From Bilabrum cf. latius (Eukaryota): DNA of 64,000 bases. Below the pieces are notes generated by a model. The model worked only from the letters and a program-made list of their open reading frames with translations, had not been told where the DNA came from and searched no databases. Where the stretch lies: the NCBI GenBank assembly GCA_965178125.1, contig OZ237746.1, forward strand, positions 868,001 to 932,000, in the 5' to 3' direction. Positions within the stretch are counted from its first letter, which is position 1; each line of letters opens with the position of its first letter. This document shows, one piece after another, positions 34,965 through 64,000 of this stretch. A program made the translations under genes and the position numbers.

Positions 34965-37159
34965 TAGGCGCCAGCACGGGCACCATCAAAGGATCGTGAC
35001 CGACACCGGACGATACGTTGAATGTGGACAAGTCGGGTACGCAGACGACTACGTGGCACTGACGTCGAACTGGAACGAAGCAGTGGCGGTCATGAAGCTA
35101 GTCAAGAGCCTGTTTGCACTTGCGGGCATGTAGCTGGGAATCAAGCCCCTGACAGCATCGGGCCAGGGAACCAAGACAGCGATCATGGCCTTTGGCTACG
35201 CTCGGGACTCAATTCCTGGGGACATGCCAGAGGGCGTCGCATGCAGAGCAGCGGACGCGGGAGAGACGGATGGGGAGTGGACCATCCCACTTGCCTCATC
35301 CTACCTGTACCTCGGTCTACTCATTTCGACCCAACCAGTACGGATCAGCCCAGATGAAGTAGCTGGGCTGACGCAGGCGAGAGACATCTGGGTAATTGAT
35401 ATGGCACCCCACGTACGCAGGAGGATTGCGATGGCGTACCGGGCGGCCAGGGACATCACACGAGCGGCGGTGAACGGCAACTGGGCGGTCTCCCTGCACG
35501 CCCAGCTGCTCCATGCAGGAGCAATCACGAGTGCATTCTACGGAGCAGAGGCAGCGGCATGTGCAACAGGATGGGACACCTTGTCAGGATTAGGATATGG
35601 TTCCCAAGTTTTCTACGGGATGGAACTGAACCTGGAAGTCCTCAAGATGCTGGACAAATTCCTGCTGGATACGCGCTGGATGATTGTCAGCGGATCGACA
35701 CAGGTAAGGCCCTTCACCATGGGCGGTCGATACGTGCCAAACCTTGCGATGGACACTGAGCTGCTGACGGCATCGGCAGCAGGGCGTGTTGCTATGGGCC
35801 TGCTGGACCTGATCGAGTGTCCCTCGAAGAAGGGCCTTGATGTTGCGGCCAGGTTCATCCACCAGGGCCGATTCCTGCAGGGACCACCAGTACAGACAGG
35901 CCCACTCGGGGCCGCGCTGGCACTGGGATTCAGGATCAAGATGGCAGGGTGGACCCACCGGATCGATGACGCGAAGGACTGGCTGGGATGCCAGGAGACT
36001 GCAAAAAAAGTCACAAAGTGGAGGAAATCCAAATCCGGAGCTGCTGACCGATCGTTCACAAGCCTGAGCCTGGGATGCTCGCACGATCCGGCACTGTCGG
36101 ATTGGGACCGGGAGAGAGCTGCGCTCGGAGTGGTCATGCTTAACCGGTACGCAACGAAGGGGCGGTATGCCTTCGGACCAGGAGCCATGCCAACAGCAGC
36201 GGTGGTGCAGGAATACGGCCACCAAGGAAGACGAATTCTGCGCATCCGAGCTGGACAATACCCGCAACAGGGCACGCCCAACCTTCAAGTGATGGGCACC
36301 GCGGTAGAGCAGATGGAGCGGGCCGAGCATGACCATCATGCCGGAACGAGACCGTGGCAACCCGATGATGCGGATCAGAATAGAGGGAGGTCCCCTGCCT
36401 CCCTCCGGAAAGCATGGGCGAAGACAGCTCTCGCTCAGGACCCTTGGGACGAGAAGCTGGAGCGCACCAGCAGGGCCAAGCCAATCGTCGAAGACGCACT
36501 CACTCGGATAGAGCGTACGATTGCGCGGTCATCGGAACGGACAGCTGTCAAGGAGCTGGCCAACCGAGTGGTGCAGGTGATCAGGAACCAGCTGCGCTAG
36601 CAGGAGTAGCTGACGTGCAGGCAGTGGATGCGAGGCGATGCGGCGGCTGCTCTTGCCGCCACGGCCACGCAAGAGCTGATAGCGGCAACCAATGCGAACG
36701 CTCGGCTACAGCGACGGATGTTTAAGCCCCACGGCTTGCTAAGGGACATAGAGAGGCAATGGGCCAAAGGCATGAGCGCGTGCATGCTAGCCTCTCTGAA
36801 GGATCGTGAGACGCAGAGACGGTCATGGAGGAGGAAATGGTGGGTCCCGGCAGGGGACCCTGATGTGGGACTGGACCGCGCTTTGTGCCGGGCACATGCT
36901 CCGCACCTGTATGCTTTCTCCCTGTGAAGGCATCAGGCTGAGGGCTTGTGGGGGACCACATTGATGGCGAATAAAGGGGACTCGGCGGTGTAGGCTGAGA
37001 TTGGGGGGCCTTTGGCCTGAAAGGGTCGGGGGTCTTGTAGTCCTTGTTTGAGGACTCCTCTGGATTCAGGTGATCACTCGAACTCCTTCGGGGGCAACGG
37101 TGCATCTGGGTGCTTGTGGAATCTTTACCCAACAATGTATTTCTGTATTTCTGTATTTC
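34965..37159 (+). mobile_element. 5'-truncated non-LTR retrotransposon (LINE) with (TGTATTTC)n 3' tail
   Basis: Frame +1 reads GQVGYADDYVAL (YADD at 35038), then KTAIMAF, YLYLG, RRRIAMA and FYGAEA. It stays open through TAGs to TGA 36927. Three TGTATTTC units lie at 37136-37159. No TSD was seen. Confidence 0.75.
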
Positions 37160-37220: not shown

Positions 37221-37225
37221 TTGAG

Positions 37226-37437
37226 GACACGCATGCTGTGGCGGATGGCAGTGAGGGCACGGATGCTGTGGCGGATGGCAGTGAGGGCACGAATACTGTG
37301 GCGGATGGCAGTGAGGGCACGAATACTGTGGCAGATGGCAGTGAGGGCACGGATGCTGTGGTGGATGGTAGTGAGGGCACGGATGCTGTGGCAGATGGCA
37401 GTGAGGGTACGGATGCTGTGGCAGATGGCAGTGAGGA
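37226..37437. repeat. 30-bp minisatellite, about 7 copies
   Basis: Unit approximately CACGGATGCTGTGGCRGATGGCAGTGAGGG, repeated head to tail with few substitutions. Confidence 0.95.
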
Positions 37438-39371: not shown

Positions 39372-39987
39372 TCCCCCAGCTAATACTGGACATTTCTTCA
39401 ATATTTCTTTAGGTTTTGGTTTTCCGTGAATATATCTAAAATTTTCAAATCAATTTTTAAGAATTCCCAAGAATTCCCGATGCCCCCTACAAATACTGGA
39501 CTTCTCCGTTCAATTTTTCATAGAATGTCATTTTCATGAATATATCTAACTTTTTCACACTTTCTCCCAGCATATGAGTTTTGAGGTAGCAGGTTCACGC
39601 TTTTAAAGGGTTTTACTGGACGATTTCCCACGAACCCGAAAAAGGGGTAGGGCTGAACGGCTCAAATCCACTCCAAAAATTCCTCAAAATCCATGGTCAT
39701 CGGCGTTGTATCGCAAAACCCTTAGTTGGATAAACAGGGGGTTTTCCAAACTTTTCCAACGATTTCCCCTACTTTTCCCAGATAAGGGCAAATCCGCTGG
39801 AAATCCTTAGTAGGGCTTACAAGGCCTTCCTGATATTTTCCAATCAATTTTTAAGGATTAACAAGGGTGTGTATTCGTTTTCTCGGTGGATTGGAAAAGT
39901 CCCCAAGATGCTCGGGCTTTGCCCTCCGCTCTTTTGATATCTTTTTCAAAGATTAAAATTGAGAGATTTGGTCGGTCGAATAAAGGA

Positions 39988-42900
39988 ATGATAAATATAT
40001 GTGATTCAAACTACACGCTACCCAGGCTAAGAAGTCACCCGAAGGCTACTTCGACCGGGAGGAAACATCTCACTGACCAGCTCAAGCCATGGGGGCTGCC
40101 AGCTGTGCTGCTTCTCCGTGGAGGTTCTGCACATCTGGAGCTCCCACCACAAGTGCTGGGGGATGTATAAGACCGGCATGGTCAGGGTCAAGGCCATCTA
40201 CCTCGTCCCCAGCGCCTCCAACCCCTTCAGCTGGTAGCACTCCTGCCGGGTTCGCAGCCTGCACTACCTACGCTTGTGCTGCCGCTTGCGCCGCCTCGGG
40301 GGCCACAGCTCCTGCTGGACCCGCTCCCTGCACCACTCTCGCTTCCCGTAGCCCTGACATGTTCCGCAACTTAAGGTTGAATTGAATCGTGCGGCATGCG
40401 CTCAGCATGGAAACTCCTTTGGCGATCACTCGCGCCCAGATCCTGACCTGGGCCTCCACCGACCTGCTGCGGGCCACCCCCAGCCTCTTGCGTCGGATTC
40501 GGGCCAACAGGCGTAGCAGTCCGCGTGCCCCGTTGCCCAAGCGTCCTGTCGCCAGGACAACAAAGTCCTGGAAAACGACCTGGTTCCTGTTCTTGATGGA
40601 CTTGACCCTCTCCGTGGCCGTTCCGGGTGCCATTCGCCCTCCCATCAGCCGATGGGGAGGGATGGGCTCATTGATCTCTCGCCACTTCCTCCCGGCTGCT
40701 CGTGCTCCCGCTGCTTCGTCCTGATGATCCGACCCCACTGGTTTACTGGGAAAGTGCCTGTCCCCATTATCCGTCCGCCTATTGATCTGAGACAGTCCGC
40801 ACTTGGCATGCGGGTCCGCAGTTGTCACGTCAACATAGATTGGCTTCGCACCCTCTCTCGGGATGATGATGTCCATCGAGTAGTTCCCTTCCTCATTGTA
40901 CACCCCTCTGATCTCCTTCAGTGCCTCTCGTCCGGTCGCCTCCTGTGCGATTTTCAGAAGTCTCCGCTCCACATGATAGTGCAACCCTGTCATCCTCCTC
41001 TTGTCGTCCTCCCTGATCAGCCGATCTCCGCAGTAGCTCAAGTGAGCACACTGGTGCAGGTAGCCTTCTGCTCGGGCGCACCCGGGCATCGGGCACCTCT
41101 CTGCCATCTCCGCCTCAAAGTCACATGTCCCGTTCTCCTTTTTCAGGCGCTACTGCACCTCCAGTGTAGGCCTACTGGATGGGTTGGGGACTCCCATGCG
41201 TCTACACATCTCAAACCTGAACCCATCGTTAGGGGGCACGTGTCCCTCCTGCACCGCCGATTTCGCTGTGTACGTCGTCCGTAAAATCTCGGCTGCATCT
41301 GCCGATCGGGTGTTGTGGATGATCGTCCTTATCTCCTGCATCACTTCCCGGGCCCTGTCCGCCCACTCTTGGTCATCTCCCATGAGGCGTTCCAAAAATC
41401 CACTGATCCGCCGATACGGGTGCACTGCGAATATCTGCGAATCCGCTCTGGCTGCTGCCGCTCCAAACAGACTCTGATGGTTCCCGCCGAACTTCGGGGG
41501 CTTCTCCCCTGCCTGACGTGCTCGCATCCCCGTGAAGGACTTGAGCCCCTTCGCCTCCTGCACCCAGGGTGCGGGGTTGTGAGCTGACCTCTTCCGAACC
41601 GACATCGGGTCCATTGGTTGAACGTTGATGAACACTCCCTCTGCCTTCTTGACCTTCACCACCTCAATGCGGTTGGGTGTCTCAAGCTCGTTATCCTTGC
41701 ACTTCACCCTCGCCTCCAATGCTGCTCTGACACTCGGTATCGCCCTCATAGCCTGGAACCGTACCGGATCCCAAACCTTCTTCATGAACTGCGGTAGGCT
41801 CGCGTGCGGGACAGGCTGGTGCTTGCACACGTACTTGTCCAGCGTGAGCGGATCCTCCTTCTCCGCCGTGATCAACCCCCGCAATTGGTCCGTTACCCAG
41901 CGGACCGCCCAGTCAGCCAGCACCAACGGGGACTCACTCTGCACTCCAAACGCGTCTGTTCTCCCATTTACGGGTCCTGGCACTGTGTCTACCACTGCGC
42001 TCAGCCCGTCCATGAAATCCAGGTTGTACTCCTTCGCCAGCCCAACCAAACCTGGCACCACGTCAAGGGCCATGCCAGCAAACCGTGCCACCATCGGGAG
42101 CTTGTTGGGGATAAGCGCCAACCCTGCTCCTCCCTGAGCTAGAGGTGCCTTGCGCTAATGTCTCGTGATCTCCGCGCGCAACATGTCTCCGTTCATCCCG
42201 TAGATCCGGGAGTCGAAGCGAGTGACGGTGTCCGCGAACACCACCTCGAGTCGTTCCAGCCTCTTCATCTTGCCTCCCTCCTGCATCCCTAGCAAACTGC
42301 CTGATCTCCACAGGTGTTCCCACATGGGCTGTATGCATGACCTGTAGATGGCGACCGCCACCGAGGGCTGCAGCTGAATCACCCTCGCGATAAGATCCGC
42401 CGTGTTCTCGATCCTTTTCTCCACAAAGGCCTCGGTGAAGCCTCTGGTGCGAGCCACAGGGATGCCAGCCACCACCATACCCTCTGTCTGCACCTTGCCG
42501 TCGAGTCTCCCTCCTGCTGCATCAATCTGCAGAGCCAACGTCGTCGCGGGGTCTGGTGAGTAGTACTCCGTCTTGGTGGGCTGCAGCTGAAAGTTGTCTT
42601 TCGCCACCTCCTTCGCGAGTGTTGCCATACACGCCGCCACTACTTCCTTCGTCCCCAGCAAGAAGGCGTCGTCTGCGATGCACAGTATCGTGCACAGCGG
42701 GTGCGCTGCCCTTGTTGCCTTCAGTGCCCTATTGAACCCCAGGCAGAACAGGGCGGGACTAAGGGGCGAGCCCTGCACCACACCCTGCCTGTTCTTCAAA
42801 ATCCCAATCTTGCCGTCCGAACCCACGATTCCAGCGATGCCAGCTGACCTGAACATCGCCGCTACGAGTGGCAGTGCCTCGGACTTGTTCTGCCGCAGAG

Positions 42901-43683
42901 CCGCCATGATCGTCTGCCTCTCAATCGACCCGAATGCCACCTTCATGTCTGCATGTGCCGCCACATGCTGCGGGTGAGCGCTAAGGTACACTCTAACATA
43001 AAACGCAATAGCATCAGCCCCGCATGGTAACCCTCCCCCAAACTGCTCCGGTTTGCACGTCTCCTCCACTGCCGGTACCACCCCCTTCAGTACATACTTC
43101 AGGAGCGGCAGTAGCATGTTCGAACCCATCCCTAGGGCACGAGGTTCCACTTTTCCCGGCTTCTCGATGCCAATCCCCCTACCCAGGATAAGGAAATCCC
43201 GAGCCAGCGGAGGTACCCAACCGGATCCAACGGTCCTGTACAGTGCCATCATCTGGTCCGGTGCCTTCTCCGTGAACTTCGCCACTGCTTCCCTTGAGAT
43301 CCCCAGAAGGTCCACCCCCCTGTTCTGTTTGAATTGCTGGGTGCTGGGGATCGATTTACCCTTGCTGTCCACCTGCATCATCCCTTGGATGTCCAGGGGC
43401 GAGTCCAGATCCCGCACCTCGTCATCTTGCACTGGGCCCATCTTGCCCGAGTGCTCATCAACCAGCTGACTCTGCAGCTCCGCCTGGAGGATCGCCATGG
43501 GCTTCGCCGCAACTCCATGTCCCCCCAGCTTGGATAAGGCAGACTTGTGCTTCCCTTTCCTGGCCATCTGCTCGGCACATCGAACATCCTCCTCCGAGCT
43601 GTCCGGTAGAATCACCCCTGGGTGAATTGCCTGGATGCGCTCGATTGCCCTGTCCTCATACACCCACGTGGCATCTCTGCCTT
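39988..43683 (-). mobile_element. 5'-truncated RLE-type non-LTR retrotransposon (CRE-like) inserted in the left TIR
   Basis: TSD GAATAAAGGA at 39978-39987 and 43684-43693. It is a GC-rich block, and removing it restores a TIR subrepeat. Confidence 0.9.
40082..43683 (-). CDS. Reverse transcriptase, Zn knuckle and restriction-like endonuclease polyprotein (5'-truncated)
   Basis: Motifs QFGGG, ADMKVAFGSIER, GVVQGSPLSPALF, IADD, APLAQGGAGL, CPMPGC..H...C and MDIII...YVDVT. Four ORFs are joined by TAG at 42155, 41150 and 40268; ends at TGA. Confidence 0.85.
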
Positions 43684-44309
43684 GAATAAAGGAGACTATG
43701 AAAGAATAAATAAATTTTCCTATTAAAAATATATGTTGTAATTCCTATGATGATACCATAAAAATTAAAAGGAAAATAAAAATTAATTAGTAATTGTATT
43801 TTAAGTCCCTTTGGAAAAGTCCCCCAAAAATTGAGAGATTTGACAGGTCAATTATAAGAGACTATGAAAGAATAAATAAAATTTTCCAATTAAAATATAT
43901 GTTGTAACTCCTATGATAACACCATAAAAATTAAAAGGAAAATAAAAAAACAAATTATAATTGTTTTCTAACTCCCCAATTAAAAACACAAAAATTGATT
44001 GAAAATTTTGGACAATATAGGATACAAAGAAATATTAAAATTAAGTTCCCAATTAAAATTAAATGTTGTAATTCCAATGATGATACCATAAAAATTAAAA
44101 AAGGAAATGAAAAATCAATTAGTAATTGTATTTTAAGTTCCTTTGGAAAAGTCCCCCAAAAATTGAGAGATTTGACAGGTCAATTATAAGAGACTTAGAA
44201 AGAATAAATAAAATTTTCCAATTAAAATTTAATGTTGTAATTCCCATGATGACACCATAAAAATCAATCTATTAGTTGATTGGTCGGTATCCAACTGTTA
44301 TGCGAAGCA

Positions 44310-47300
44310 TCATACCCCACCCATTTCACAAAACGAATTTATTCTGTAGTGTCCGTGCGCAAGAGTAGAATATCCATCATCCAATACATACCTTTTATCA
44401 TCGTGTGCGGACAAACCGGTTTTCGTGCTACAAATGGTATGAATACTATGGTCAAATGAGCGAATACTTGTTTGTTTTACTGAATGTTTTTCACCAAACA
44501 AGGCGTCCCTGTATTGGTCAAACCTCAAATCTCGGATATGCTATTTCTAAATTCCTTTCGCTGTTGCTTTTGCTTTTCCACCCATATTTAAGCAATACAT
44601 TTTACTGCGTAGTCCAATGAATTCTTCAATCTAATTATCACCCGTTTCGTCCTTGAAAGCTCCAACAACCTTTTTAAGTGTTAAATCCTTCATTTGAGTA
44701 CCGCTCAAAGAATATAACCTTGAATACGCACTAAAATCAAATAATCCCTCTTTTCCCGTAACGCCCTTGATATCCCCTTTCATTGCCTTCATATCCTAGT
44801 AAAAATCCTTAGTCGTGATGTGATAACATAGACTATCTGTGTCGGTAAATAACAATTTAGACTTTCCCCCATATTCCTTTTTCATCACGTTGTAGTGGAA
44901 ATCATACATAAGCGTCTTGGAAATGTCAAGAATACACATACCAATAATAATAGGTTTATTGAAGAGTATCATAGTCTTTCCCATTTCTATCTGACATAAT
45001 TTTTCACTAATAATAGTGGCATTCTTGAAGTTGGGTTTTCTCACTGCTTTTATCAATTGTGTTTCACTGGTAATCATACGGAAATTCCTATAGTTCTAAA
45101 CATCTTCCATAGTTTTCCCAAACACGGAATTATTCATCAGCTTGTAATAATCCTTTTCAAAATCACTTTTAGCGTGTAGACGCTTGTTGCTATTGAATTC
45201 AATATATTTCCTCAGGAAATCTTCCTATTGAAACTCTAATACACGGTGGATTTTAGTAATTTTAATTCCCAAAGACGCATACAACTATAGGTTTTTGATA
45301 TGACAAATATATTTCTTTCCCCCATACAAGTTAGGTGTAAGCTTTTTGAAATCGCTATGTTTCAAATTGTTCTTTTCCATCATTTTCCCAATGTAAGGGG
45401 AAGGTTTGAAACTCGCTTTTTCCGGACACAGGGGGTATTCATTATGAGCGTCGTGTATTTCCTATGGATAATCATAGTCAAACTCTACAATACAACCCTT
45501 TTCCCCTTCAACGTCATATTTTAATAATTCGTCCAAAGACTTTTCCACCCACTCAAATTTTCCAATTGGTAGTTTCTACATCATAGCCCAGCCATATAGA
45601 TTGTTCGCATCCAAATAGGAAATGTATGAAGTTTCCTAAGATTTATCATAACCGGAAATATAAGGGTTATTGGCTTTCGCATACCGATGGGTAATCATAG
45701 AAATCCCCCCTCGCATTCCCTACTAAACCATAGTCAACATATCTCGCTATTCTTTATTAAATAATTCAATCTCAACTCCAGTATATTTTAGCATACAATT
45801 CCACGATAAACCAGGTGATGTAGAAAATCGCAAGGCTTCCACCCCAAAATCCCGCCACACGTTCTCTCGGTGTTTCTCAAAGATGTCCGCCAACAATAAC
45901 ACATCTACTTTTAAGTAGAGTTTAACATAGTCGTCGAAGGTTTTACAATTGAATGTTTTCCACATGTCTTGAGCGTAATCATAGTTTTCCTATGTAATCC
46001 CAGAGTTGGATAATCCACTGTAAAAATCATCTTTAGAAGGCAACTTAGAAGTCCTTAGTTTTGTAATATTATCATACCATTCATAAGGAAAAACTCCTTT
46101 CTTCTTCACCATAAAGGACTTATCACCATACATCTTATTAATGATTTTGAAATCATTTGTATGAAGTGATTTACCCAACCTATCTAAAGAAGAAGACAAG
46201 TGCTAATATGTATCAATAAAACGCAAATTCTTAAAGGTTAGAGTAGTAAACTTCTCACTATTCTTAGCAATGACAGAAAGTGTATCGCTTGCTTTGGAAA
46301 GGTTGGAAATTGCTTTCGTAATAAACTGTCCATCATAGGCGGAAAAATTATGAAAGCAAACCACATATTCATTTTCCTTATCCTTTGTCAAGAATTCAAT
46401 AAATTGTTCCACGCAATCTTTTTCCTCAAATACCTTATATGATTTACGAAATGTATCATACATTCCAAGGTGGGTAGCAACGTGGACATTCTCAACACTT
46501 GTTTTATCACCTCTACGGGTTTTCTTGGGAACTAAACAGGCTTCAATATCCGCATACACTACGTAGGAATGTTTGGTTTCAATCTACTATCTTCTTTTTT
46601 TACCAATAGAACAATAACTGATTATACTATCCTCGTTTTCTGGAAGAACTTTTTTCGCATACGGAGCAACAGAATATTCATTACACCTATTTTTTTTGGA
46701 ATGTTCCAAAAATGATTTCTTCAATCTAAAACTCTATAGGCACTTCTAACACAAGTAGATGGTCTATTTATTCTTATAGAAGGCATTAATATTCTTAATT
46801 AAAGCAAAATGTTGTTTTCCATCTTCTTCCAACAATAGAAGGGAAATGATGTGCTTAACTTTTCCTCTGTTACAAGGTGGGGAAGCCCGATGAAGACACT
46901 TCTCTCCATCCACAAAGGTGTAAATATCCAAGGCAAAGTCGTTCAGCTTTTCCAGTGTTTGGTAATTCTCTTCTGTATCTTGGAATGGAAATTTGATATT
47001 TCCATAGAGAATAGGAAAAATTCCTGAGTTGTATTCACTATTTTCTAAGGTATAGCTCGTTGGTCTATCTCTGTTTTTCTTCGGAAGATTAAAGTATCCA
47101 CGCAAAGCGTATTTCATACAAAGCTCATCTTTATTTTTCACGTTAATAATACATTTTTTTACCGCTAATTCTTTGGGTGTTGGGATATAACTACCAACAG
47201 ACATAGGGTTATATCTAAATGGTTTTAAATAAGACCGTTTTACTTCAATAACGCGCCAACCTGAGCCCTCCGTGGTAAAGATTTCCAAAGCCTTCTAAAG

Positions 47301-48017
47301 CGTAGTAAATAATTCATTTAGTGATAGATTAATGTTGTTTTGAGTAGCAATTACATTTGTAGAGTGTAATCTAAATTCCTATCGTTTCTTGTCTGTAATC
47401 CTTTCCATAAGAGCAATCACGTCCAATTTTACTTTCCAAGACTTGGATTTCTCAGTGAGTTCCTCCAAAGTTTTCTTAAGGTCTGGTTTGATGACAAACA
47501 AATAACCTACAAGGTCTGGTAGTGGTTCTGTCGTATCAATCACGTATTCATTTGTTTCTTTACCAAATTTCGTAGCTTTCCTCATATCCACCTCAATATC
47601 TTCCTTGATATTGCTTGTATCAACGTTGGAAAGCGTATCTGTTTGTTCCAGTTCATAATAAGTCTTTTCCAAGATTTCTGTTTTGCTTCTAAGTGATGGG
47701 ATTTCATTTCCAAGCGCTCTGTATCGTTTCAAAGCCGCCACTAAATCTTTTCTGGGAAGTCTCTTCTACAGAGTATTAATCTGCTCATACCACTCATTTA
47801 CGTTCTTCTTGGATTTCAAAGACACTGGGATAAAATATCCTTCCTATTTCATCTTAGAAAGTGCTAATTGTTTTTCCTTGAAGGTGGGCTCTGGGCTTTC
47901 CGCCGTTTCCTCCTTTTCCTCAACGAGTTCGTTTTCCAATTCTTTCTCGATAAGTTGTTGTTCAATCTTTTCCTGAAGGCTTTTCAACTATTCTGGCGTC
48001 AATTTTGAGATGTCCAT
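44310..48017 (-). CDS. polB: Protein-primed family B DNA polymerase (pPolB), 1,235 aa
   Basis: Motifs YADIE, FHNFSAYD, KKKGVFPYEW, DANNLYGWAM, KLMNNSVFGKT, FTDTDSL and DDKRY. Seven track ORFs lie in one frame interrupted only by TAG; ends at TGA. Confidence 0.95.
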
Positions 48018-48076
48018 TTTGATGTTATACTATAGTGTGAGATAATACTTAAGCCACGGATGACGTGAGCCAGCCA

Positions 48077-48084
48077 TCAATTTT
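48077..48084 (-). promoter_or_regulatory. AAAATTGA mimivirus-type early promoter motif upstream of pPolB
   Basis: Exact octamer on the sense strand about 60 nt before the ATG; the same motif occurs at 51308-51315 (GIY-YIG) and 61842-61849. Confidence 0.6.
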
Positions 48085-50501: not shown

Positions 50502-51260
50502 TCAATATTTCTCCACACATTCCCTGAACTTTTCCATAGTCTTAAGAAGTTCATCAACAGACCGTTTGTAGTTTTCCATAGATTTCAAAGTGTCTGTTGG
50601 AGTTTCCTTTTGTTTCTATTCAATCAAATATTTGTGTCTAATCGTTCTTTCGTGTCTGCGTATATCTCCTCTACGGACATCACAACCACACTCACATTTT
50701 ACTCTTTGCTTTGCCCAAGTCTAGTGTTTATCTTTGTTCAAATAGTAGTATTTTTGCTACATATTTCTTATTGTAACTACATTATTCAATCTATACATTC
50801 TATTGTCTTCACGAAGTTTTTTACGGTTCTACATTCTGTAGTTGTGTTGGTACTCCCGAATTTTATCGATGTTTTCTAATTGGTATTGCTTAGTTCTCTC
50901 AAGAATTTTTCCGCGGTTCTGTTTATAGTGTTGCTTTCTTTCTTTAAGTACGAATTCTCGGTTCTATTGGTAATGCTCTCTCCTTGTTCTTCCTGCGACA
51001 ATTTTATTCACGCAATCACTTTTCTGTATGAATTCACCCTCTCTGCGATTTAATGCCTCTTTCGATTTACAAGGGTGGTTCTCAATTAAAATAATTCGTG
51101 CGTCTCCACATTTAAGAACTCTTTGCGAAGTACAGTTGTCTGTCATTAAACGATGTTTGGACATTCTCTTACTCAAAGATTGAGTAGTAGAACCAATATA
51201 CGTTAATCCTGTAGAAGGAGACCAAATTTTATATATTTTCCCCTTTGAATAATCAGGCAT
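50502..51260 (-). CDS. GIY-YIG endonuclease with C-terminal CECG...H...H zinc finger (252 aa)
   Basis: KIYKI...YIGSTTQSLSKRMSKH; extends past the TAG at 50964 to TGA 50502. Confidence 0.85.
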
Positions 51261-51321: not shown

Positions 51322-51798
51322 TCAAGCTTGGAGCATAGCGAGTAGTTGGTTACGAGAAAGAGATTTACCACCTGTTAAGCCCGAGCCTAACTTGGCACCT
51401 GTTAAGCCCTTGCCTTTCTTGGTAGTTTTTCGGGGTTTCCTTTGGCGTCCCATACCAGCCATTTCACCCACCATTTTAGCGGTGTCAAATACCTACTTAC
51501 CATCCTTTAATACTTTTTTGAGATTGCCTTTCTTTACCCAATCAGCGGTTTTGTGTGCGAACTTTTTTAAGGCGTGTCTAATCTTTTTCCCAAGACCGCG
51601 ACCATGTAATCCTGATAATTGACTTTCATATACAACGGGTAGTTTAGAGGCGGAAAGAACATCTGCCCTTGAGATGACACCCTGCTAATACTCAATCTTA
51701 GAACCATCAATCACATTCATTACTCCTTCGTACAATCCCACAACCACACACTACACATTTTGGTAATCTACAACATCATTATTCTTCACTCGTAGGGT
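51322..51798 (-). CDS. MCP: Major capsid protein, 3' part (basic, Gly-rich C-terminal tail)
   Basis: TLRVKN...YEGVM...GVISRADVLSA...KGKGLTGAKLGSGLTGG; joins the 5' part in frame. Confidence 0.88.
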
Positions 51799-54700
51799 TA
51801 ACATAAATAGTAATATTAGAACGAGTCGGGGCGGGATCTGGGATCGGGGGCTTGCGGGCCGGGGCCCGCTCCGGCGCGGGGCGGAGAACTTAGTTTAGTT
51901 CATTACTATCATACAGAATGTGCGCGCGCGCCGCCATCGCAATCGCGCGGGGCGCGAGCGGCGGCGGGAAGTGCCTGCCACCCCGAGTTGTCCGTTCGGC
52001 TACCACGTTTCGAAAAGTATCTCGACTAAAACGCAAGGGATCGCTTATTCCATGCTTATTGCTACGCTCCGATAGCAGTTAAATGAAACGCTGCCGGTGG
52101 AATTTCCATGCACCCTCGAAACAAAAAGCCTTAGGGATTCGCGCGCCCGGATAAACTCCTCCCTGCCGCGCCCTGATCCGATCCCTTTCGCGCTCCACTC
52201 GATCCGATTCATTCCACCCCTCGAATGCGCCGGTAAGCGACAACATTGTTTGATTTGCATTATAACATCATGATTTCTGCTAGCCGATCGGCGGCCCATG
52301 TCGTGCCCGGCTCTGGAGGAGCACTGAGGTGGCGCGCAAACGCTGTCATCTCCAATCGTGAGCCCAATCCCCGCAGCATCCATGCAACGAGCAACGAAAT
52401 ATTACTTGATTGAATACCAAACATGCAATTCCATGGCGTGATAGGCGTCAGAGCATTGGTGAGTCGAGTGAGCGGACCAACGGCAGCTTCCAACGCCACG
52501 AGCCTCGAGGCACAACGCGTCCACGCTCCAGTCAGTTCCCATCGCAGATGCAAGAGCGCTTTAAACAAAATCAAGTAAGACATAGATTCGATTGCCTGCG
52601 TGTGCTGCTGCTTTGATCGGGGAGGGAGGGCTCCAAGCGGCCGGCTCGCCCTCCCTCCGCCTTGCCGCTGCTGAATCCGACCGCGGGAGCAATCCAAGCT
52701 TCAGGAAGACGACGACGCGCCGGCACAATGGACTCTATGAAGCTATTCATGGCAAATTGCATCGCCGCCGCCGACCGCCGGCAGGCGTTCTGTACCTCGT
52801 GAGCTCATTCAATGCTGACATCTGCGAACTAGCGCCTCCAGCACCCCATCAGCAGCACCGCGTAGCGCCACGGCGGCAGCCAGTGGCATCCTACGGCTCT
52901 CATGCATCTCCTGACTCTGCATTGCCTCCATCGTGGCGGGCACGCCCATTGTGCCTGACGCTCTCCTGCTTGCGACCATCGGCATCGCTGGCGCCTGGCT
53001 GCGACCCCCCGGCACGCGACGGCAGCTCTCCACTCCCGCTACCCGGCCCGCCACCCACTCCCATCTACAAACCCATGGGGGGCGGGCTTAGGTCCTTTCC
53101 CTCTTGTTAACATAAACAGTAATATTAGAACGAGTCGGGGCGGGATCCGGGATCAGGGGCTTGCGGGCCGGGGCCCGCGCCCGCACCGAGCGGAGAACTT
53201 AGTTTAGTTCTATGAGATAACATTCAATGGGCGCGCGCGCCGCCATCGCAATCGCGCGGGGCGCGAGCGGCGGCGGGAAGTGCCTGCCACCCCGAGTTGT
53301 CCGTTCGGCTACCGCGTTTCGGAAAGTATCTCGACTAAAACGCAAGGGATCGCTTATCCCTGACCAATTAGTATGATCATCAATAAAGGAATAAGGTAGC
53401 CCTTGGTGCCTGTTGGATTCTCCCACGAAACAAAAAGCCTTAGGGATTCGCGCGCCCGGATAAACTCCTCCCTGCCGCGCACTGATCCGATCCCTCTCGC
53501 GCTCCACTCGATCCGATTCATTCCACCCCTCGAATGCGCCGGTAAGCCAATAGATTGTTGTATTTGCATTATGACATCATGATTTCTGCTGGCCGATCGG
53601 CTGCCCATGCCGTGCCCGGCTCTGGAGAAGCACTGAGGTGGCGCGCAAATGCTGTCACCTCCAACCGCAAGCTCAATCCCCGCAGCATCCATGCCACGAG
53701 CAACGAAATGTTACTTGATTGAATATCAATCACGCAATTCCACGGTGAGGTAGGCGTGATAGCATCGATGAGTCGAGTGAGCGGACCAACAGCAGCTTCC
53801 AACGCCACGAGCCTCGAGGCACAACGCGTCCGCGCTCCAGTCAGCTCCTATCGCAGATGCAACAGCGCTTTAAAACAAAATCAAGTAAGGCATAGATTCG
53901 ATTGCCCGCGTGCGCTGCTGCTTTGATTGGGGAGGGAGGGCTCCAAGCGGCCGGCTCGCCCTCCCTCCGCCCCGCCGCTGCTGAATCCGACCGCGGGAGC
54001 GATCTAGGCTTCAGGGAGACGACGACGCGCCGGCACAATGGACTCTATGGAGCTATTCATGGCAAATTGCATCGCCGCCGCCGACCCCCGGCAGGCACTC
54101 TGTACCTCGTGAGCTCATATCGCGCTGACATCTGCGAGCTAGCGCCCTCCAGCGCCCCGGCTGCAGCACCGCGAAGCACCACGGCGGCAGCCAGTTGCAT
54201 CTCACGGCTCACCTGCATCTCCTGACTCTGCGTTGCCTCCATCGTGGCGGGCACGCCCATTGTGCCTGACGCTCCCCTGCTTGCGACCATCATCATCGCT
54301 GGCGGCAGGCTGCGACCCCCCGGCACGCGACGGCAGCTCGCCACTCCCGCTACCCGGCCCGCCACCCACTCCCATCTCCAAACCCATGGGGGGCGGGCTT
54401 AGGTCCTTTCCCTCTTGTTAACATAAACAATAATATTAGAACGAGTCGGGGCGGGATCCGGGATCGGGGGCTTGCGGGCCGGGGCCCGCTCCCGCACCGA
54501 GCGGAGAACTTAGTTGAATGCTGTAAGATTACATTCAATGGGCGGGCGCGCCGCTGCCGCAATCGCGCGGGGAGCTTGCGGCGGCGGGAAGTGCCTGCCA
54601 CCCCGAGTTGTCCGTTCGGCTACCGCGTTTCGGCTCTTATCTCTGCGATCGGGACATATCTCGCTAATCCGGCGGGTAACTTTGTGCTACCATGCCAGCG

Positions 54701-55729
54701 AATCCGAACGCAACGGTATGCTCGGCGATTCTCACTCGAAACAAAAAGCCTTAGGGATTCGCGCGCCCGGATAAACTCCTCCCTGCCGCGCCCTGATCCG
54801 ATCCCCCTCGCGCTCCACTCGATCCGATTCATTGCACCTCTCGAATGCGCCGGTAAGCCAATAGATTGTTGTATTTGCATTATAACATCATGATTTCTGC
54901 TAGCCGATCGGCGGCCCATGTCGTGCCCGGCTCTGGAGGAGCACTGAGGTGGCGCGCAAACGCTGTCACCTCCAATCGTGAGCTCATTCCCCGCAGCATC
55001 GATGCCACGAGCAACGAAATCTTACTTGATTGAATATCAAACACGCAATTCCATGGCGGGGTAGCCGTGCTAGCATCGGTGAGTCGAGTGAGCGGACCAA
55101 CAGCAGCTTCCAACGCCACGAGCCTCGAGGCACAACGCGTCCGCGCTCCAGTCAGCTCCCATCGCAGATGCAACAGCGCTTTAAAACAAAATCAAGTAAG
55201 AAATAGATTCGATTGCCTGCGTGCGCTGCTGCTTTGATTGGGGAGGGAGGGCTCCAAGCGGCCGGCTCGCCCTCCCTCCGCCCTGCCACTGCTGAAATCG
55301 ACCGCGGGAGCGATCTAGGCTTCAGGGAGACGACGACGCGCCGGGACAATGGACTCTATGAAGCTAATCATGGCAAATTGCATCGCCGCCGCCGACCGCC
55401 GGCAGGCACTCTGTACCTCGTGAGCTCATATAATGCTGACATCTGCGAGCTACCGCCCTCCAGCACCCCGACAGCAGCACCTCGAAGCACCACGGCGGCA
55501 GCCAGTGGCATCCTACGGCTCACGTTCATTTCCCGACTCTGCGATGCCTCCATCGTGGCGGGCACGCCCATTGTGCCTGACGCTCTCCTGCTTGCGACCA
55601 TCGGCATCGCTGGCGCCTGGCTGCGACCCCCGGGCACACGACGGCAGCTCTCCACTCCCGCTACCCGGCCCGCCACCCACTCCCATCTCCAGACCCATGG
55701 GGGGCGGGCTTAGGTCCTTTCCCTCTTGT
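51799..55729. mobile_element. Head-to-tail trimer of a GC-rich, apparently non-coding ~1.31-kb element inserted in the MCP gene (units 51799-53107, 53108-54418, 54419-55729)
   Basis: Each unit runs TAACATAAA...GGTCCTTTCCCTCTTGT; lengths are 1309, 1311 and 1311. A GT is shared at the junctions, and exact removal restores the MCP frame. Confidence 0.9.
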
Positions 55730-57052
55730 GATAGACAATTGGTTAGAACCGTTTGAACCATTTGTCTAATCTACATCTAGGCTCAAATCCTTGGCGGGGT
55801 CGATGGAGAGAATTGCGCCTGATAGCACCCTTTGTTGATATCCAGGCTATTCAGGCTATATTCCATTATCGAAGCGTCGCATAGCCCATTCCGCGTATTG
55901 CTATTCAAGTCCGTTGCTTCTGGATAAGTCCCATAGCTATTGAGGTGATGCGTCGGCGAGTAATCCAGATTGGTTATTCATTTCGATACTTATTCCCTCA
56001 ATTCCAAGGAATGTGTTTCCCTAATCTACTGAGACGCTGGTAGGTGAGCGTCGGGCAAACACAAATAGACGAGATGGAACTGAATTGCTAAGTTTAATAT
56101 TGTTGTTCGTAAGAGTTGCTGTTGTTCCTGCGCTGATTGTTGCACCATAGCTTTGAGTATATGAAGTCATTTCAAAAATATCATAGGAGACCTGTTTTGG
56201 AAGGACAAACCCTGTTTTAGGGGTAATCTATTCAAGGTATAAATAGGGGTTCTTGACATCTACCGACTAAACGGAAGCAGTTAAGTCCTATTGTGGAATA
56301 CGAGACCACACGGTTCTACTCAGTTGTGACCAATTGATATCTAAGGAAAGAGTTTCTAAACCGAAAATGGCTGGTTGTTCCTATTTACTTTCGTAATGGA
56401 AAGGTGGGCAAAGAACCGCCTCAGTACATTCAAAGACAAGAACACGATTTTGCGTTTGACCTGCGGGCACTGGAGTGTTATCCATTTGAACCAAGTTATA
56501 AAATCCACTTCCTCTTGCGGGTTGGTCCTAAAGCACGTCTTCATACGAAGCAAGAGCGTTATTTGTAGCCTAACTCATCATCGCGTATGAAGGCACATTG
56601 TCGCGTCTATACACACTATCAAGGCAATTCACACGATGAACATCATCATCTAAGCAATGGGACACTACGTCCATTATTTCCGCGTTATTCTAAGTAAAGC
56701 GAATGTTATTGATACCAACTGTCTGTGTTGCAATGGAGCGATTAAGTGGATATGAGCGTGGAGCATCGTAATCTGGTGTAAATGGTACGAGAGCACCTGC
56801 GGTTTGATTATTCACGGAAAAGGTAATGGAAAAACGGCAAGACACGTATGCGCGGCGGCATAAACCTACACCTGAAGGCATACTAATATTCCAATTCACA
56901 CCTGAATTATAATTACCGGCTGAACCAGATGGAGCGTATCTGCGAAACGTTCGGTTCTCATAACCTTCTTGAACTTCATACGGCTTCGGTTGTACATCTA
57001 ATGTAGCGGGTGATACTTTGACTGGCTGAAGGGCAAAGGTATTCAATGACAT
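55730..57052 (-). CDS. MCP: Virophage major capsid protein, 5' part (441 codons; 599 aa when joined)
   Basis: The N-terminus (YEVQEG...NWNISMPS...LCRRAYV...ITF...DAPRSYPL...INN) follows the Sputnik-type MCP pattern; many in-frame TAGs. Confidence 0.88.
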
Positions 57053-57130: not shown

Positions 57131-58246
57131 TCAAAGTCCTTTCCGTTTCTTAAATAAAAACTTCACACTCACACTTCCGTGGCGTAAATAAAGAGGTCTT
57201 AGATTTGAATAATTGTCTTTCCAATATAGATTAAACTAAATCCTATCTACTGAATGTGTATCTAAAAAATCAATTTCGTGGAGAATATGGGGCTGGTATT
57301 GAAGAACCTACTAATTAACTGTTTCAGTGTCATCTAATACACAATCCATATCCACTAATAAACTCTCGGTTCCTGAACCTGAATTTTGAACTGTATTAGT
57401 GGATTGTCCATAGGCGGATTTCTAGGATATTGCCTCACTCCTCACTGGAAGACTTGAAGATGTGAAAACTATTCCACGGAAAACCTAAAACTACACTAAA
57501 CTCCCTCGTTCCTAGGTCATCATTAATCTGTAGTCTCCTGATGGATTTCCCTCGAAGTATGCCTAAGGTTCATATTTTCCAACAGAACTGCCATCATCAA
57601 ATAAAACATTCGTTCCTAAGGATTTGAATAGAATACTGGCGTATAAGTCGTCATCTTGGATATCCATTCGTTCCATAGGAAAACCCGTCATCAGTTCGTT
57701 AAGGGCTTCATTCAACACTAATTTAAATTTTTGTCCTGAGTTTTCCTCGTCGTAATCGGGGTTTGCTACTAAACTGAACTTTCCATCTTTGAATAGTAAA
57801 ACCGGAACTGATGTAATATCCGCTGATAAAGCGTTCTATAGGGTTTCGTTGAATAAATCAACAAAATGCTACACGGAATACATATAATAATAAGGAACAA
57901 ACTACATAGGATTGGAAAAAGATGGTTGGTTTTCCCCTGTTAACTAGGGTCTCCATATAATACTTTCCGTCCATAATTGTACTCCACTTTCATCTGTAAT
58001 GCTTATTCTATACACCGTTTGATTAGGATTTGAAGATGGATTTTTCACTTTATCGGTTTCTATGTGTGGAACCCATAAAGGTATTGAATTGGTGCTTATG
58101 GAAAACCGGAATACTGACATCGTATAATCACCAACATCCTTATCTAATAATGGCTACTTGCGGGTTTCGCTATAGGTCGCTGGTTGGAAAGTATCTTCGT
58201 TATTTCGTATGTTTGCGGTAATGTAAAATCGGTCTGGAGAACTCAT
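57131..58246 (-). CDS. Virophage minor capsid (penton) protein, 371 aa
   Basis: FYITANIRN...ATYSETR..PL...DYTMSVFRFSISTNSIPLW at the N-terminus and VKFLFKK at the C-terminus; lies directly upstream of MCP; absent from the track because of TAGs. Confidence 0.85.
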
Positions 58247-60483: not shown

Positions 60484-61389
60484 TTATAGAAGGTATGCCT
60501 ACTTCTCTCCAATTAAATACCTCGGGTAATTCCTGTGGACACAGACCCACCTGGAAGGCATTTTTAAGACTTTAGAGATTTCTTGTTTCTCAAGTCCTAT
60601 ATAATTCTTTAACAAATACCTTAGAGAATGTGCGGATGAACACTAAGGGAATATAACGAACTTATGACTTTCCGCAAGAATAATTCGGGTACTTTTATAA
60701 TTTGTGGATAAATGAGAAGTCATTAGAATTGACGTATTTGAGTGGCGACCAACTTGTAAAATATCGTCCTATAAATCTATCAAAGCCTTTTTTACGTCTT
60801 TATCTCTTACTGTATCTATATCGTCTAAAATAACTAAACAATCCTTTAATTCTGTGTGGCAATCAATAGGGTTTTCCACTAATTCCTAATTTAATTCAAT
60901 TCTACTTAGGTTCTTCAAATCATCTAAGGCCTTATCTACCCCAACCCTAGAAAATAAAATAATACGTCGGTCTGGAAATAATCTATTGTAATTCTTAGCG
61001 TATTTACCCACCCAAGTACTTTTCCCACTTCCTGCTGGAGCTGTGATATATACCACTTCCCTTTGAATATCTGGATTTGGAAGACACTAAAATTCACCCT
61101 ATTTTAATGTAATCTCTTTATGTTTCTTTTCCTATGCTTTCTCATATAAATATTTTATGTCTTCATCTAGGGGTTCGACCTGTTTGATAAGGTGACGTGC
61201 CAATAAATCCATTTTCCTCTGGGGAAATCTTTTCCCGGTAAGTGATGATACTTGAAAATCCTAGAATGTAACACTATCATCTCCAAATTGGTTGTCTGTG
61301 TTTTCCGCTGTGTATAAAATACGTTTTCCGTGTGTGTCATATGCAATAGGAGTTGATTTTGTAGTTTCCTTCCAAGAAAAATGTGCCAT
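60484..61389 (-). CDS. FtsK/HerA-family (A32-like) genome packaging ATPase, 301 aa
   Basis: Walker A APAGSGKST, Walker B LVILDDID, and GRH, TSH and SRWV motifs; ends at TAA. Confidence 0.92.
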
Positions 61390-62715: not shown

Positions 62716-63639
62716 ATGGAAAAGTATTTTGACGAAGTTCATACTCCTAGAAACCCTGAGCGGTCATATAGAAAAGTTTAGGCCTATGGAAATGCGGATA
62801 TTTACTCTGCAGATTTAATTGACCTCTCAAGATTTGCTGAGTATAATGATAATTATAAATGGATACTCTCATTAATTGATATTATTTCAAGAAAAGGGAT
62901 TGCTATACCACTCAAGAATAAACTAGCGACTACTGTGTTAAAAGGCTACAAATAGATTGTGGAAGGCTTGGGAAAACAACCTAATAAACTGTGGACTGAC
63001 TAGGGAAAAGAGTTCTATAATAAAACGTTTAAGAAATATCTTTCCAAACACAATACTCACCTGTACTCAACTTTTTCCGGAAAAAAGGCGGTTGTTGTGG
63101 AACGCTTCAATAGAACTATTTTAACCAAATTATTTAAGTCGATGGCTAAGAATAAGACACGACGATGGATTGATTTATTAACTGATGTTATTGTTTCCTA
63201 TAATAATACTGAACATAGCACCATTAAGATGACACCTAACGAATTGTGGGAAAAGGAAAAAGATTTCCAACCAAGTATTAAACGTCACTAGAAAAGCCCT
63301 ATTAAATTCAAGAAGGGCGATATCGTACGAGTAATGTACCCTAAGAAAACATTTGATAAAGGGTATTTACCTAATTGGAGTTGGGACGTCTTCAAAATTA
63401 ATAAGGTATTCTTGACAAATCCAACAACCTATACTTTGACGAATGGGGAAAAGAAGAAATTAGAGGGGAAATACTATGATTGGCAATTAAAGAAAACCGT
63501 GTAGCCTTTTGGGGTCTATAACATCGAAAGAGTTGTAGATACTGAAATGAAAGATGGAATTGAGTATAGTTTTGTGAAATGGGTGGGGTATGATGCTTCG
63601 CATAACAGTTGGATACCGACCAATCAACTAATAGATTGA
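62716..63639 (+). CDS. Polinton-type rve (DDE) integrase with C-terminal chromodomain, 307 aa
   Basis: SADLID, IDIISR, WTD*GKEFYN, VERFNRT, YNNTEHSTIKMTP, KGYLPNWS and VKWVGYDASHNSWIP. Confidence 0.95.
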
Positions 63640-63708
63640 TTTTTATGGTGTCATCATGGGAATTACAACATTAAATTTTAATTGGAAAATTTTATTTATT
63701 CTTTCTAA
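63569..63708. repeat. Inner part of the right TIR
   Basis: Reverse complement of 44195-44334; the match stops abruptly at 63709. Confidence 0.9.
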
Positions 63709-64000
63709 TAATGCTAACGCCGAATGGGGTTCGGGGTTGATGTGGCGATGCGTTCGAGACTCGAACACAGGCTCCGGTCTACCAACGCGAGGTTGCAACC
63801 GCCAGTGCGACCAGCAGCTTGCGAGGCATTCCCTCGTCTCCTTCCTTAGGGAAGGGGGCGGGGCAGCGCGGCAGTGGCCGTTCCGGCTCATGCCGTTGTT
63901 TTGTTTAGTATTTATGTTCGGTTTGGTGCTCACACGGGTAGTGCTTAACGCCGTGTCAACTATCGCGCGTGTCCATGTGGGTCCGTTCGGCCTACATCGT
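63709..64000. mobile_element. Unidentified GC-richer insertion interrupting the right TIR (runs off the window)
   Basis: TIR identity is lost and GC rises at 63709. Confidence 0.55.

Follow-up and report, generated by a model that had tools for sequence, protein, structure and literature searches.

An unclassified mobile element present as an exact head-to-tail trimer in the capsid gene of an endogenous virophage of Bilabrum cf. latius

In a 64,000-nucleotide (nt) stretch of the Bilabrum cf. latius assembly GCA_965178125.1 (contig OZ237746.1, positions 868,001 to 932,000; hereafter, the window), the major capsid protein (MCP) gene of an endogenous mavirus-like virophage is interrupted by a 3931-bp insert composed of three complete units arranged head to tail (1309 + 1311 + 1311 bp). 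Because an empty site exists and other copies share the termini of the insert beside unrelated DNA, comparison with public sequencing runs identifies it as a mobile element rather than a simple satellite or a product of misassembly. The copies show that the insert belongs to a low-copy, non-coding mobile family resident in the host genome, with the fixed termini 5'-TAACAT...CTCTTGT-3'; it appears to fit none of the families that we tested and is here treated as unclassified. As for its movement, we assign a probability of roughly one half to a trans-acting enzyme that cuts and joins DNA exactly where units begin and end.

The interrupted capsid gene and the structure of the insert

The insert occupies positions 51799-55729 and, its length not being a multiple of three (3931 mod 3 = 1), breaks the reading frame. 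Each junction between units reads CTCTTGT/TAACAT, while the outer edges are flank/TAACAT on the left and CTCTTGT/flank on the right. The left flank ends in ...GGGT and the insert in ...TTGT, which leaves the exact boundary uncertain by just the 2 nt GT; apart from these shared letters, the insert edges show no target duplication. An 8-bp perfect palindrome, TGTTAACA, lies across both internal junctions (Table 1). The insert has a GC content of 60% and sits within virophage DNA of ~35% GC. An earlier note, made from the letters of this stretch, had described a frame-breaking insert of three exact units with a single boundary and only a GT overlap, which the coordinates and the junction reads bear out; it had also claimed that there is neither a terminal inverted repeat (TIR) nor a long target duplication, and indeed, none of the 25 longest inverted pairs examined (92 were found) joins both termini, and the overlap is 2 nt.

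When the insert is left out, the minus-strand pieces 57052->55730 and 51798->51325 rejoin as ...GSNQLSI/TLRVKN..., yielding, as the earlier note had stated, an MCP of 599 amino acids (aa), provided that TAG is read as a residue. The N-terminal piece matches the Pfam families Sputnik_MCP_1st (1.4e-22) and MCP_V20_C (1.6e-26), that is, two jelly-roll domains, and aligns with residues 25-441 of Sputnik V20 (E 4.3e-27), the alignment stopping at the break, while the match of the C-terminal piece to the C-terminus of the mavirus MCP is weak (E 0.058). Judged by these matches, the interrupted gene is confirmed as a Sputnik V20-type virophage major capsid gene, with no relatives of its protein in the viral contig collection. 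The capsid frame continues for 67 codons into the insert, to position 55526, so that the predicted truncated product has 508 aa. Because the protein is truncated after residue 441, the sequence shows a virophage copy that would be unable to make its own capsid.

At ~39 kb of the window, the composition switches from 58-72% GC to about 35% GC. Under the standard code, the AT-rich part has no long frames, but with TAG as a sense codon it yields a full mavirus-type gene set (Table 1). The break in the capsid gene aside, the virophage reading frames, 13,608 nt in length, contain zero stops and zero frameshifts, showing a mavirus-like virophage that is recently integrated and otherwise intact. The earlier claim that the MCP gene is the only disrupted viral gene is therefore correct for the reading frames; it does not extend to the terminal repeats, of which the left one holds a non-long-terminal-repeat retrotransposon (LINE) and the right one is broken at 63708/63709.

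An empty site and further copies in public sequencing runs

Ten public runs, none of them listed as RNA, contain parts of the stretch, and contigs of four of them were compared (X1, organism A; X5, organism B; X7 and X8, tentatively typed as RNA but looking like DNA) at 85% likeness and with a bridging rule of 31 nt. Summed word depth in these contigs does not equal copy number, and holes in the contig cover (e.g. X1 52019-52669) prove nothing. Two contigs per run in X1 and X5 skip exactly 3931 bases (51796->55728; 51799->55731), the sequence at the empty site being ...AGGGT^GATAG.... At the empty site, X1 has a depth of 284-328 and X5 one of 11-16, while the unique flank has 37 and 3.8, respectively. 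These contigs show that intact copies of the same capsid gene exist in the public runs, and word depth, although no copy number, hints that such empty-site copies outnumber the occupied one.

Right ends of the element abut unrelated DNA at 53107/8 (X7, X8), 54418 (two contigs of X7) and 55729 (two contigs of X1; X7), and left ends do so at 51799 (X7) and 53106, i.e. GT+TAACAT (one flank common to X5, X7 and X8). Among the loose ends listed, outside which lie fourteen more, every right end falls directly after CTCTTGT, one of them at +1. The left flanks have the form T-N-G-G-G-T in two of the three non-self cases. Segments of unit 1 (u1) recur with 0 differences in contigs of X7 and X8, and the unit 2 (u2) type reaches ~5x the word depth of the unique flank, which again is not to be read as copy number. 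Matches to a 26-mer of the element were absent from viral contigs, and neither this 26-mer nor a 31-mer from the right end was matched in metagenome contigs.

The earlier note had proposed a non-autonomous mobile element with exact ends, had named variable ends of other copies as the sign of an ordinary satellite, and had suggested a comparison with empty-site copies. The proposal is upheld by the empty site and by the termini shared elsewhere: copies at other loci stop at the same TAACAT and CTCTTGT, and the skip of exactly 3931 bp is present in contigs of two organisms.

Sequence and folding of the units

Overall, the units are 88.7-89.6% identical to one another, and 92.7-94.0% identical without two hypervariable patches, the divergence of the core amounting to 6-7%. 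The patches (~nt 96-125 and 215-318 of the unit) are unalignable between units, and their length is kept. Along the three units, the pattern of which one is the odd one out is clustered (60 runs compared to 74 expected, p 0.003), and the units seem to be mosaics of one another. In family members from X7 and X8, blocks at 52658-54070 and 54147-54214 are swapped for unrelated sequence of similar length, or deleted; block-wise replacement seems to be a general trait of the element family.

No coding periodicity was detected, with the 115 variable core sites split 44/31/40 by codon position, and a frame that is open in one unit is interrupted or displaced in others. None of the 20 unit frames of at least 102 aa contains a Pfam family, and they carry no remnant of a transposase, reverse transcriptase (RT), RNase H (RH) or tyrosine recombinase (YR). 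The plus-strand frame 55030-55728 had no protein match in a search limited to near lengths, and the minus-strand frame 54296-55021 had a single one (E 8.3e-4 among 1.84 billion representatives), which we took as noise. Rfam yielded no match at gathering score over the window and none at E<=1 over 51700-55830, no tRNA-like part was found in the unit, and the units share no similarity with the neighbouring LINE, its 3' end included. Further unit copies within the window were not detected either (blastn word size 7, best E 0.24). Because Pfam and Rfam families, periodicity, a protein match and a TIR are all lacking, the unit is non-coding and non-autonomous; the earlier remark that no transposase is recognisable agrees with the 0 of 20 frames bearing a Pfam family.

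The first 120 nt of the unit, which include a compound GC-rich hairpin, fold clearly more stably than 200 shuffles (z -3.57 on the plus and -4.07 on the minus strand). A consensus fold of the first 402 nt features a long-range helix common to the three units, in which both patches lie in loops with invariant closing stems. Covariation is uninformative with three units, and this modelled arrangement of the 5' part of the unit is offered as a hint only.

Comparison with known mobile elements

Helitrons have the termini 5'-TC...CTRR-3', insert between A and T (T/T in the case of Helitron2/Helentron) and form a hairpin 10-20 nt before the 3' end. The termini of the unit are 5'-TAACAT...CTCTTGT-3', or ACAAGAG...ATGTTA on the other strand, and shifting them by 2 nt does not help; the insertion site, ...GGGT^GATAG, is neither A^T nor T^T; and at the place of a Helitron-type 3' hairpin there is an inverted repeat of 11-12 bp, 20 nt before the end, in a terminal stretch of 120 nt with fold z of 0.15 and 0.06. 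Similarities to Helitrons and Helentrons comprise the lack of a TIR and of a target duplication, non-autonomous copies, head-to-tail arrays and orientation-specific insertion. Tandem arrays of Helitrons are attributed to rolling-circle replication in a passage of PMC12001565, whereas the units described here are diverged and hence form no concatemer of one template.

Replitrons are described in a section of PMC10288648 as eukaryotic copy-and-paste elements with ~0.9-kb non-autonomous partners, insertion 3' of RG, a right-end palindrome and mostly no duplication; the same section describes a short direct repeat that lies at each terminus or close to it and, for Replitron-1 only, fuzzy right ends and variable duplications. 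Our element is similar to them in its insertion 3' of a dinucleotide, its right-end palindrome and the lack of a target duplication. However, neither TAACAT nor the adjoining sequence is repeated towards the right end, the right ends are exact among the loose ends listed, and the window contains no Rep gene. Considering the Helitron termini and target and the direct terminal repeats of Replitrons, none of which the unit has, the Helitron-like and Replitron-like labels given in the earlier note do not hold.

Two further comparisons come from endogenous virophages of other hosts. In Cafeteria burkhardae, as part of PMC8547959 reports, endogenous mavirus-like elements contain Ngaro elements (DIRS-order, tyrosine-recombinase) and solo AB repeats. 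There, as here, GC-rich host elements break AT-rich virophages, including genes and terminal repeats, and remnants lack open reading frames (ORFs). The unit differs in being devoid of RT/RH/YR coding, in its length of 1.31 kb and in forming an exact trimer of pre-diverged units; instead of the DIRS/Ngaro layout A1-[ORFs]-B1A2B2 with RT, RNase H and YR, there is a plain trimer with a Pfam family in 0 of 20 frames. The hosts differ as well, since TAG is sense here and the sirtuin is 45% identical to that of Cafeteria, and at most 51% identical to its best match. Part of a preprint on Halocafeteria seosinensis (bioRxiv 10.64898/2026.07.28.741278) places MULEs and LINEs in virophages and polinton-like viruses, where they sometimes inactivate a viral gene. 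Both hosts thus have host transposons in endogenous virophages, and a LINE lies in the terminal region here too, but the trimer, without a TIR and without a target duplication, is neither a MULE nor a LINE.

Among the remaining candidates, non-LTR retrotransposons and SINEs disagree with a duplication of at most 2 nt, no likeness to the LINE, and 5' ends that are exact at the loose ends listed; TIR transposons and MITEs disagree with the lack of both a TIR and a duplication; and for retrozymes and group I/II introns, Rfam detected no ribozyme or intron core. Divergent HDV-like folds can escape Rfam.

The bacterial, archaeal or giant-virus elements IS200/IS605, IS91 and IS607, which have their own transposase genes, lack inverted repeats and duplications, possess subterminal hairpins, insert beside a short fixed motif and form circular junction intermediates. 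In IS91, multimeric tandem insertions occur, while IS607, a serine-recombinase element, has a 2-bp core in common with its target. The likeness of our element to this group lies in its working, not in membership: there is no TIR and no duplication, and the 2-nt target overlap is IS607-like. Of the two subterminal hairpins, the left folds significantly better than shuffles and the right does not, and the T.GGGT motif occurs in two of the three non-self left flanks; the position of GT, off-centre in the junction palindrome, differs from IS607, and no such enzyme was seen here. By analogy, the unit would work most like prokaryotic end-specific HUH or small-core recombinase elements.

Proposed mechanism and alternatives

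In the mechanism to which we assign about even odds, an integer number of pre-diverged, mosaic units would leave an older tandem array in one event; alternatively, repeated insertion might take place beside an existing right end, since ..TTGT resembles the target ..GGGT. The enzyme supplied in trans could be an HUH single-strand nuclease in the manner of IS200/IS605 or IS91 ('peel/roll and paste'), acting on the subterminal hairpins and inserting 3' of a short motif, or it could be a recombinase that acts on a circle, the closed junction of which would be the palindrome TGTTAACA. Both routes would account for exact ends, whole numbers of units, the 2-nt overlap, the lack of a duplication and insertion in one orientation, 3' of a short motif.

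Several observations weigh against this interpretation. The window contains neither a transposase nor a partner with the same termini, and no second full copy was read with both of its flanks. The last 120 nt of the unit fold no better than shuffles (z 0.15 and 0.06), and the folds of the 402-nt part reach just z -1.35 to -2.14. For a serine recombinase, whose site needs a central overlap, GT is off-centre in the junction palindrome, and for a tyrosine recombinase, a 2-bp identity is short. The target rule is derived from three left flanks, one of which, ..ATAC, is without GT. The empty-site contigs have a shorter side of just 26-27 nt, below the bridging rule, and no listed contig bridges the occupied junctions between MCP and unit, so the occupied state gains no independent support. 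Finally, organisms C and D carry a u1-identical copy without u2 after its right end, which argues against a conserved u1-u2-u3 donor array.

Going further, the unit could be the cis-acting part of a eukaryotic class of mobile DNA not yet described, one that moves as whole-number multiples via a circular or single-stranded junction intermediate (TGTTAACA), driven by an unseen HUH enzyme or small recombinase, with the patches as exchangeable specificity or guide segments. We regard this extension as speculative and improbable. If it were true, such elements could preferentially disable the capsid genes of endogenous virophages, tilting the balance between host, virophage and giant virus.

An RNA-mediated origin appears unlikely, at about one chance in five. 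Under this scenario, the units would be non-autonomous retroelements, either a module similar to the DIRS/Ngaro 'solo AB' or the outcome of a LINE RT jumping end to end across three transcripts. Enzymes of the R2 type are capable of template jumping, and end-to-end jumping would account for diverged units being joined exactly; DIRS/Ngaro integration creates no target duplication; and an RT-bearing element lies 8 kb away in the same virophage. Moreover, GC-rich Ngaro elements and solo AB repeats are known invaders of Cafeteria endogenous virophages (the relevant part of PMC8547959). On the other hand, no similarity connects the units to the nearby LINE, which has a 10-bp duplication and a 5' truncation, the trimer having neither; all 20 frames are free of RT, RNase H and YR remnants; neither a self-cleaving ribozyme nor another Rfam family that could trim RNA to unit length was found, nor was HDV-like P1 pairing seen by eye; and fresh Ngaro repeats are expected to be near-identical, not 6-7% apart.

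The history of the trimer bears on a second alternative. When random change was simulated on the 13,608 nt of virophage frames, they stayed stop-free in 1 of 300 runs at 1% and in 0 of 300 at 3.3%. Because the units are 6-7% apart and yet the virophage frames are intact and the inner terminal repeat is preserved at 140/140, the units must have diverged before insertion, unless the viral genes were repaired from sister copies. The view that they are not a fresh tandem duplication, also taken in the earlier note, is thereby strengthened, the 6-7% core divergence predating arrival. The history that needs the fewest events, and the most likely one, is a transfer of all three units at once from an older array, which also fits the mosaic. 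The same enzyme could have acted in another way, with the trimer growing in place through three separate insertions of family members, each at the end of the previous one. In its favour, the right end of the element, TCTTGT, resembles the T.GGGT left flanks of independent copies, copies with unique flanks and other neighbours occur, one identical to u1 (organisms C and D) and one similar to u2 (B, C and D), and the u2 type has the raised word depth given above, which is no copy number. Such growth would, however, need three hits by a low-copy family at one spot of a recent virophage, no intermediate joints of one or two units are listed in X1 or X5 (absence from contigs being weak evidence), and the mosaic blocks fit long co-residence in an array. 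Between the serial insertion and the piece of an array that the earlier note had put forward, parsimony and the mosaic lean towards the latter, and we consider stepwise growth rather unlikely.

It is highly doubtful that the insert resulted from repair of a double-strand break in the capsid gene, filled with a piece of a host 1.3-kb satellite via 2-nt microhomology. The junction homology of just 2 nt and the tandem layout, which is typical of satellites, would suit such an event, and virophage insertions do lie in repeat-rich DNA, both in this window and in the part of the Halocafeteria preprint that deals with them (10.64898/2026.07.28.741278). However, random capture would begin and stop anywhere in the repeat, whereas both ends of the insert fall on one unit boundary, which likewise terminates copies at several other loci in four runs. 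Least probable of all are an assembly chimera, which the missing bridging contigs and the difficulty of assembling multi-copy virophages and repeats (noted in part of PMC8547959) would favour but which would not leave complete units flanked by sequences that join precisely and in frame, and which is also opposed by the use of the boundary at other loci, and an intron-like insert spliced from the capsid mRNA, given that the gene's strand shows no GT..AG or AT..AC ends, that no group I or group II intron was matched, and that the trimer is antisense or sense-neutral with the MCP frame stopping after 67 codons.

A protective role against giant viruses is attributed to endogenous virophages in protists, and its duration depends on what inactivates them. 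Host transposons in endogenous virophages are already known from Cafeteria and Halocafeteria, and the present insert adds a further case with an unclassified element. Besides Ngaro in Cafeteria and MULEs and LINEs in Halocafeteria, it would represent a third kind of invader, exact-ended, lacking a TIR and a duplication, and arriving as a ready-made array. To our knowledge, eukaryotic elements of comparable style are few, namely Helitrons, Replitrons and Cryptons. With termini, an empty site and polymorphic copies available in several sequenced relatives, the chemistry of transposition is directly testable.

TAG as a glutamine codon

TAG evidently encodes glutamine in both the host and the virophage. 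The capsid gene has 16 in-frame stops, every one of them TAG, and its frame of 599 aa stays open only when this codon is sense; likewise, long host frames carry 3-26 TAGs each (e.g. 24626-34861, minus strand). In the polymerase, TAG falls on four conserved-glutamine columns (51, 57, 58 and 40 of 60 homologues, respectively). In the virophage genes, TAG is commoner than CAG (e.g. 26 compared to 4), and they end with TGA or TAA. No tRNA genes were found in the window. A passage of PMC6905037 mentions just a hint of an ochre tRNA. A virophage fully adapted to the TAG = glutamine code of its host would bear on how viruses and parasites track changes in the host code.

Virophage terminal repeats and neighbouring elements

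The coordinates of all features are collected in Table 1. The LINE is flanked by a 10-bp target duplication, GAATAAAGGA (39978-39987 and 43684-43693), and its insertion site is the 166-bp repeat region of the left terminal repeat of the virophage, 8 kb from the trimer; an extra partial copy of the 166-bp repeat lies to the left of the LINE, at 39955-39987.

Table 1. Features of the insert, the virophage and its surroundings, in positions of the window
Feature	Position	Strand	Basis or remark
Unit 1 (u1)	51799-53107	+ (nominal)	1309 bp, 5'-TAACAT...CTCTTGT-3'
Unit 2 (u2)	53108-54418	+	1311 bp; type with the top word depth in runs X1 and X5
Unit 3 (u3)	54419-55729	+	1311 bp
8-bp perfect palindrome TGTTAACA	53105-53112 (across u1/u2); repeated at 54416-54423 (across u2/u3)		Read from sequence
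Hypervariable patch 1 (smaller)	~nt 96-125 of every unit		Unit alignment
Hypervariable patch 2	52013-52116 (u1); 53322-53425 (u2); 54633-54736 (u3)		34-48% identity in worst 50-column window
Left subterminal compound GC-rich hairpin	54442-54503 in u3 (nt 24-85 of unit)		Fold compared to shuffles
Right subterminal inverted repeat GCCCGCCACCCA / TGGGGGGCGGGC	55668-55709 in u3		11-12 bp, ends 20 nt before unit end
Major capsid gene, N-terminal 441 codons	55730-57052	-	Pfam and Sputnik V20 alignment
Major capsid gene, C-terminal 158 codons and TGA stop	51322-51798	-	Weak mavirus MCP match
Protein-primed polymerase	44310-48077	-	Virophage
GIY-YIG nuclease gene	50502-51260	-	E 3.6e-7; directly downstream of capsid gene
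Penton protein	57131-58246		Virophage
Packaging-type ATPase	60484-61389		Virophage
rve integrase with chromodomain	62716-63639		Virophage
Left terminal inverted repeat, inner 140 nt	44195-44334		100% complementary to 63569-63708 (140/140)
166-bp AT-rich repeat, ~3.5 copies	43692-44264		Outer part of virophage terminal repeat
5'-truncated non-LTR retrotransposon (LINE)	39988-43683	-	Pfam RVT_1, E 5e-11

By eye, the C-terminus of the LINE protein displays Cys/His and D..D..K nuclease-like motifs. At the other end of the virophage, the right terminal inverted repeat agrees with its left counterpart over 140 nt; at 63708/63709 it gives way to GC-rich DNA that starts with TAATGCTAACGCC and is cut by the end of the window at 64000. 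The break reflects a third insertion or else truncation of the virophage at this end. Beside the virophage, a 611-aa frame (35092-36927, plus strand), with no Pfam family and no likeness to the LINE protein, is followed by 7.2 copies of a 30-bp repeat (37222-37436), and together they may be another repeat or a transposon relic.

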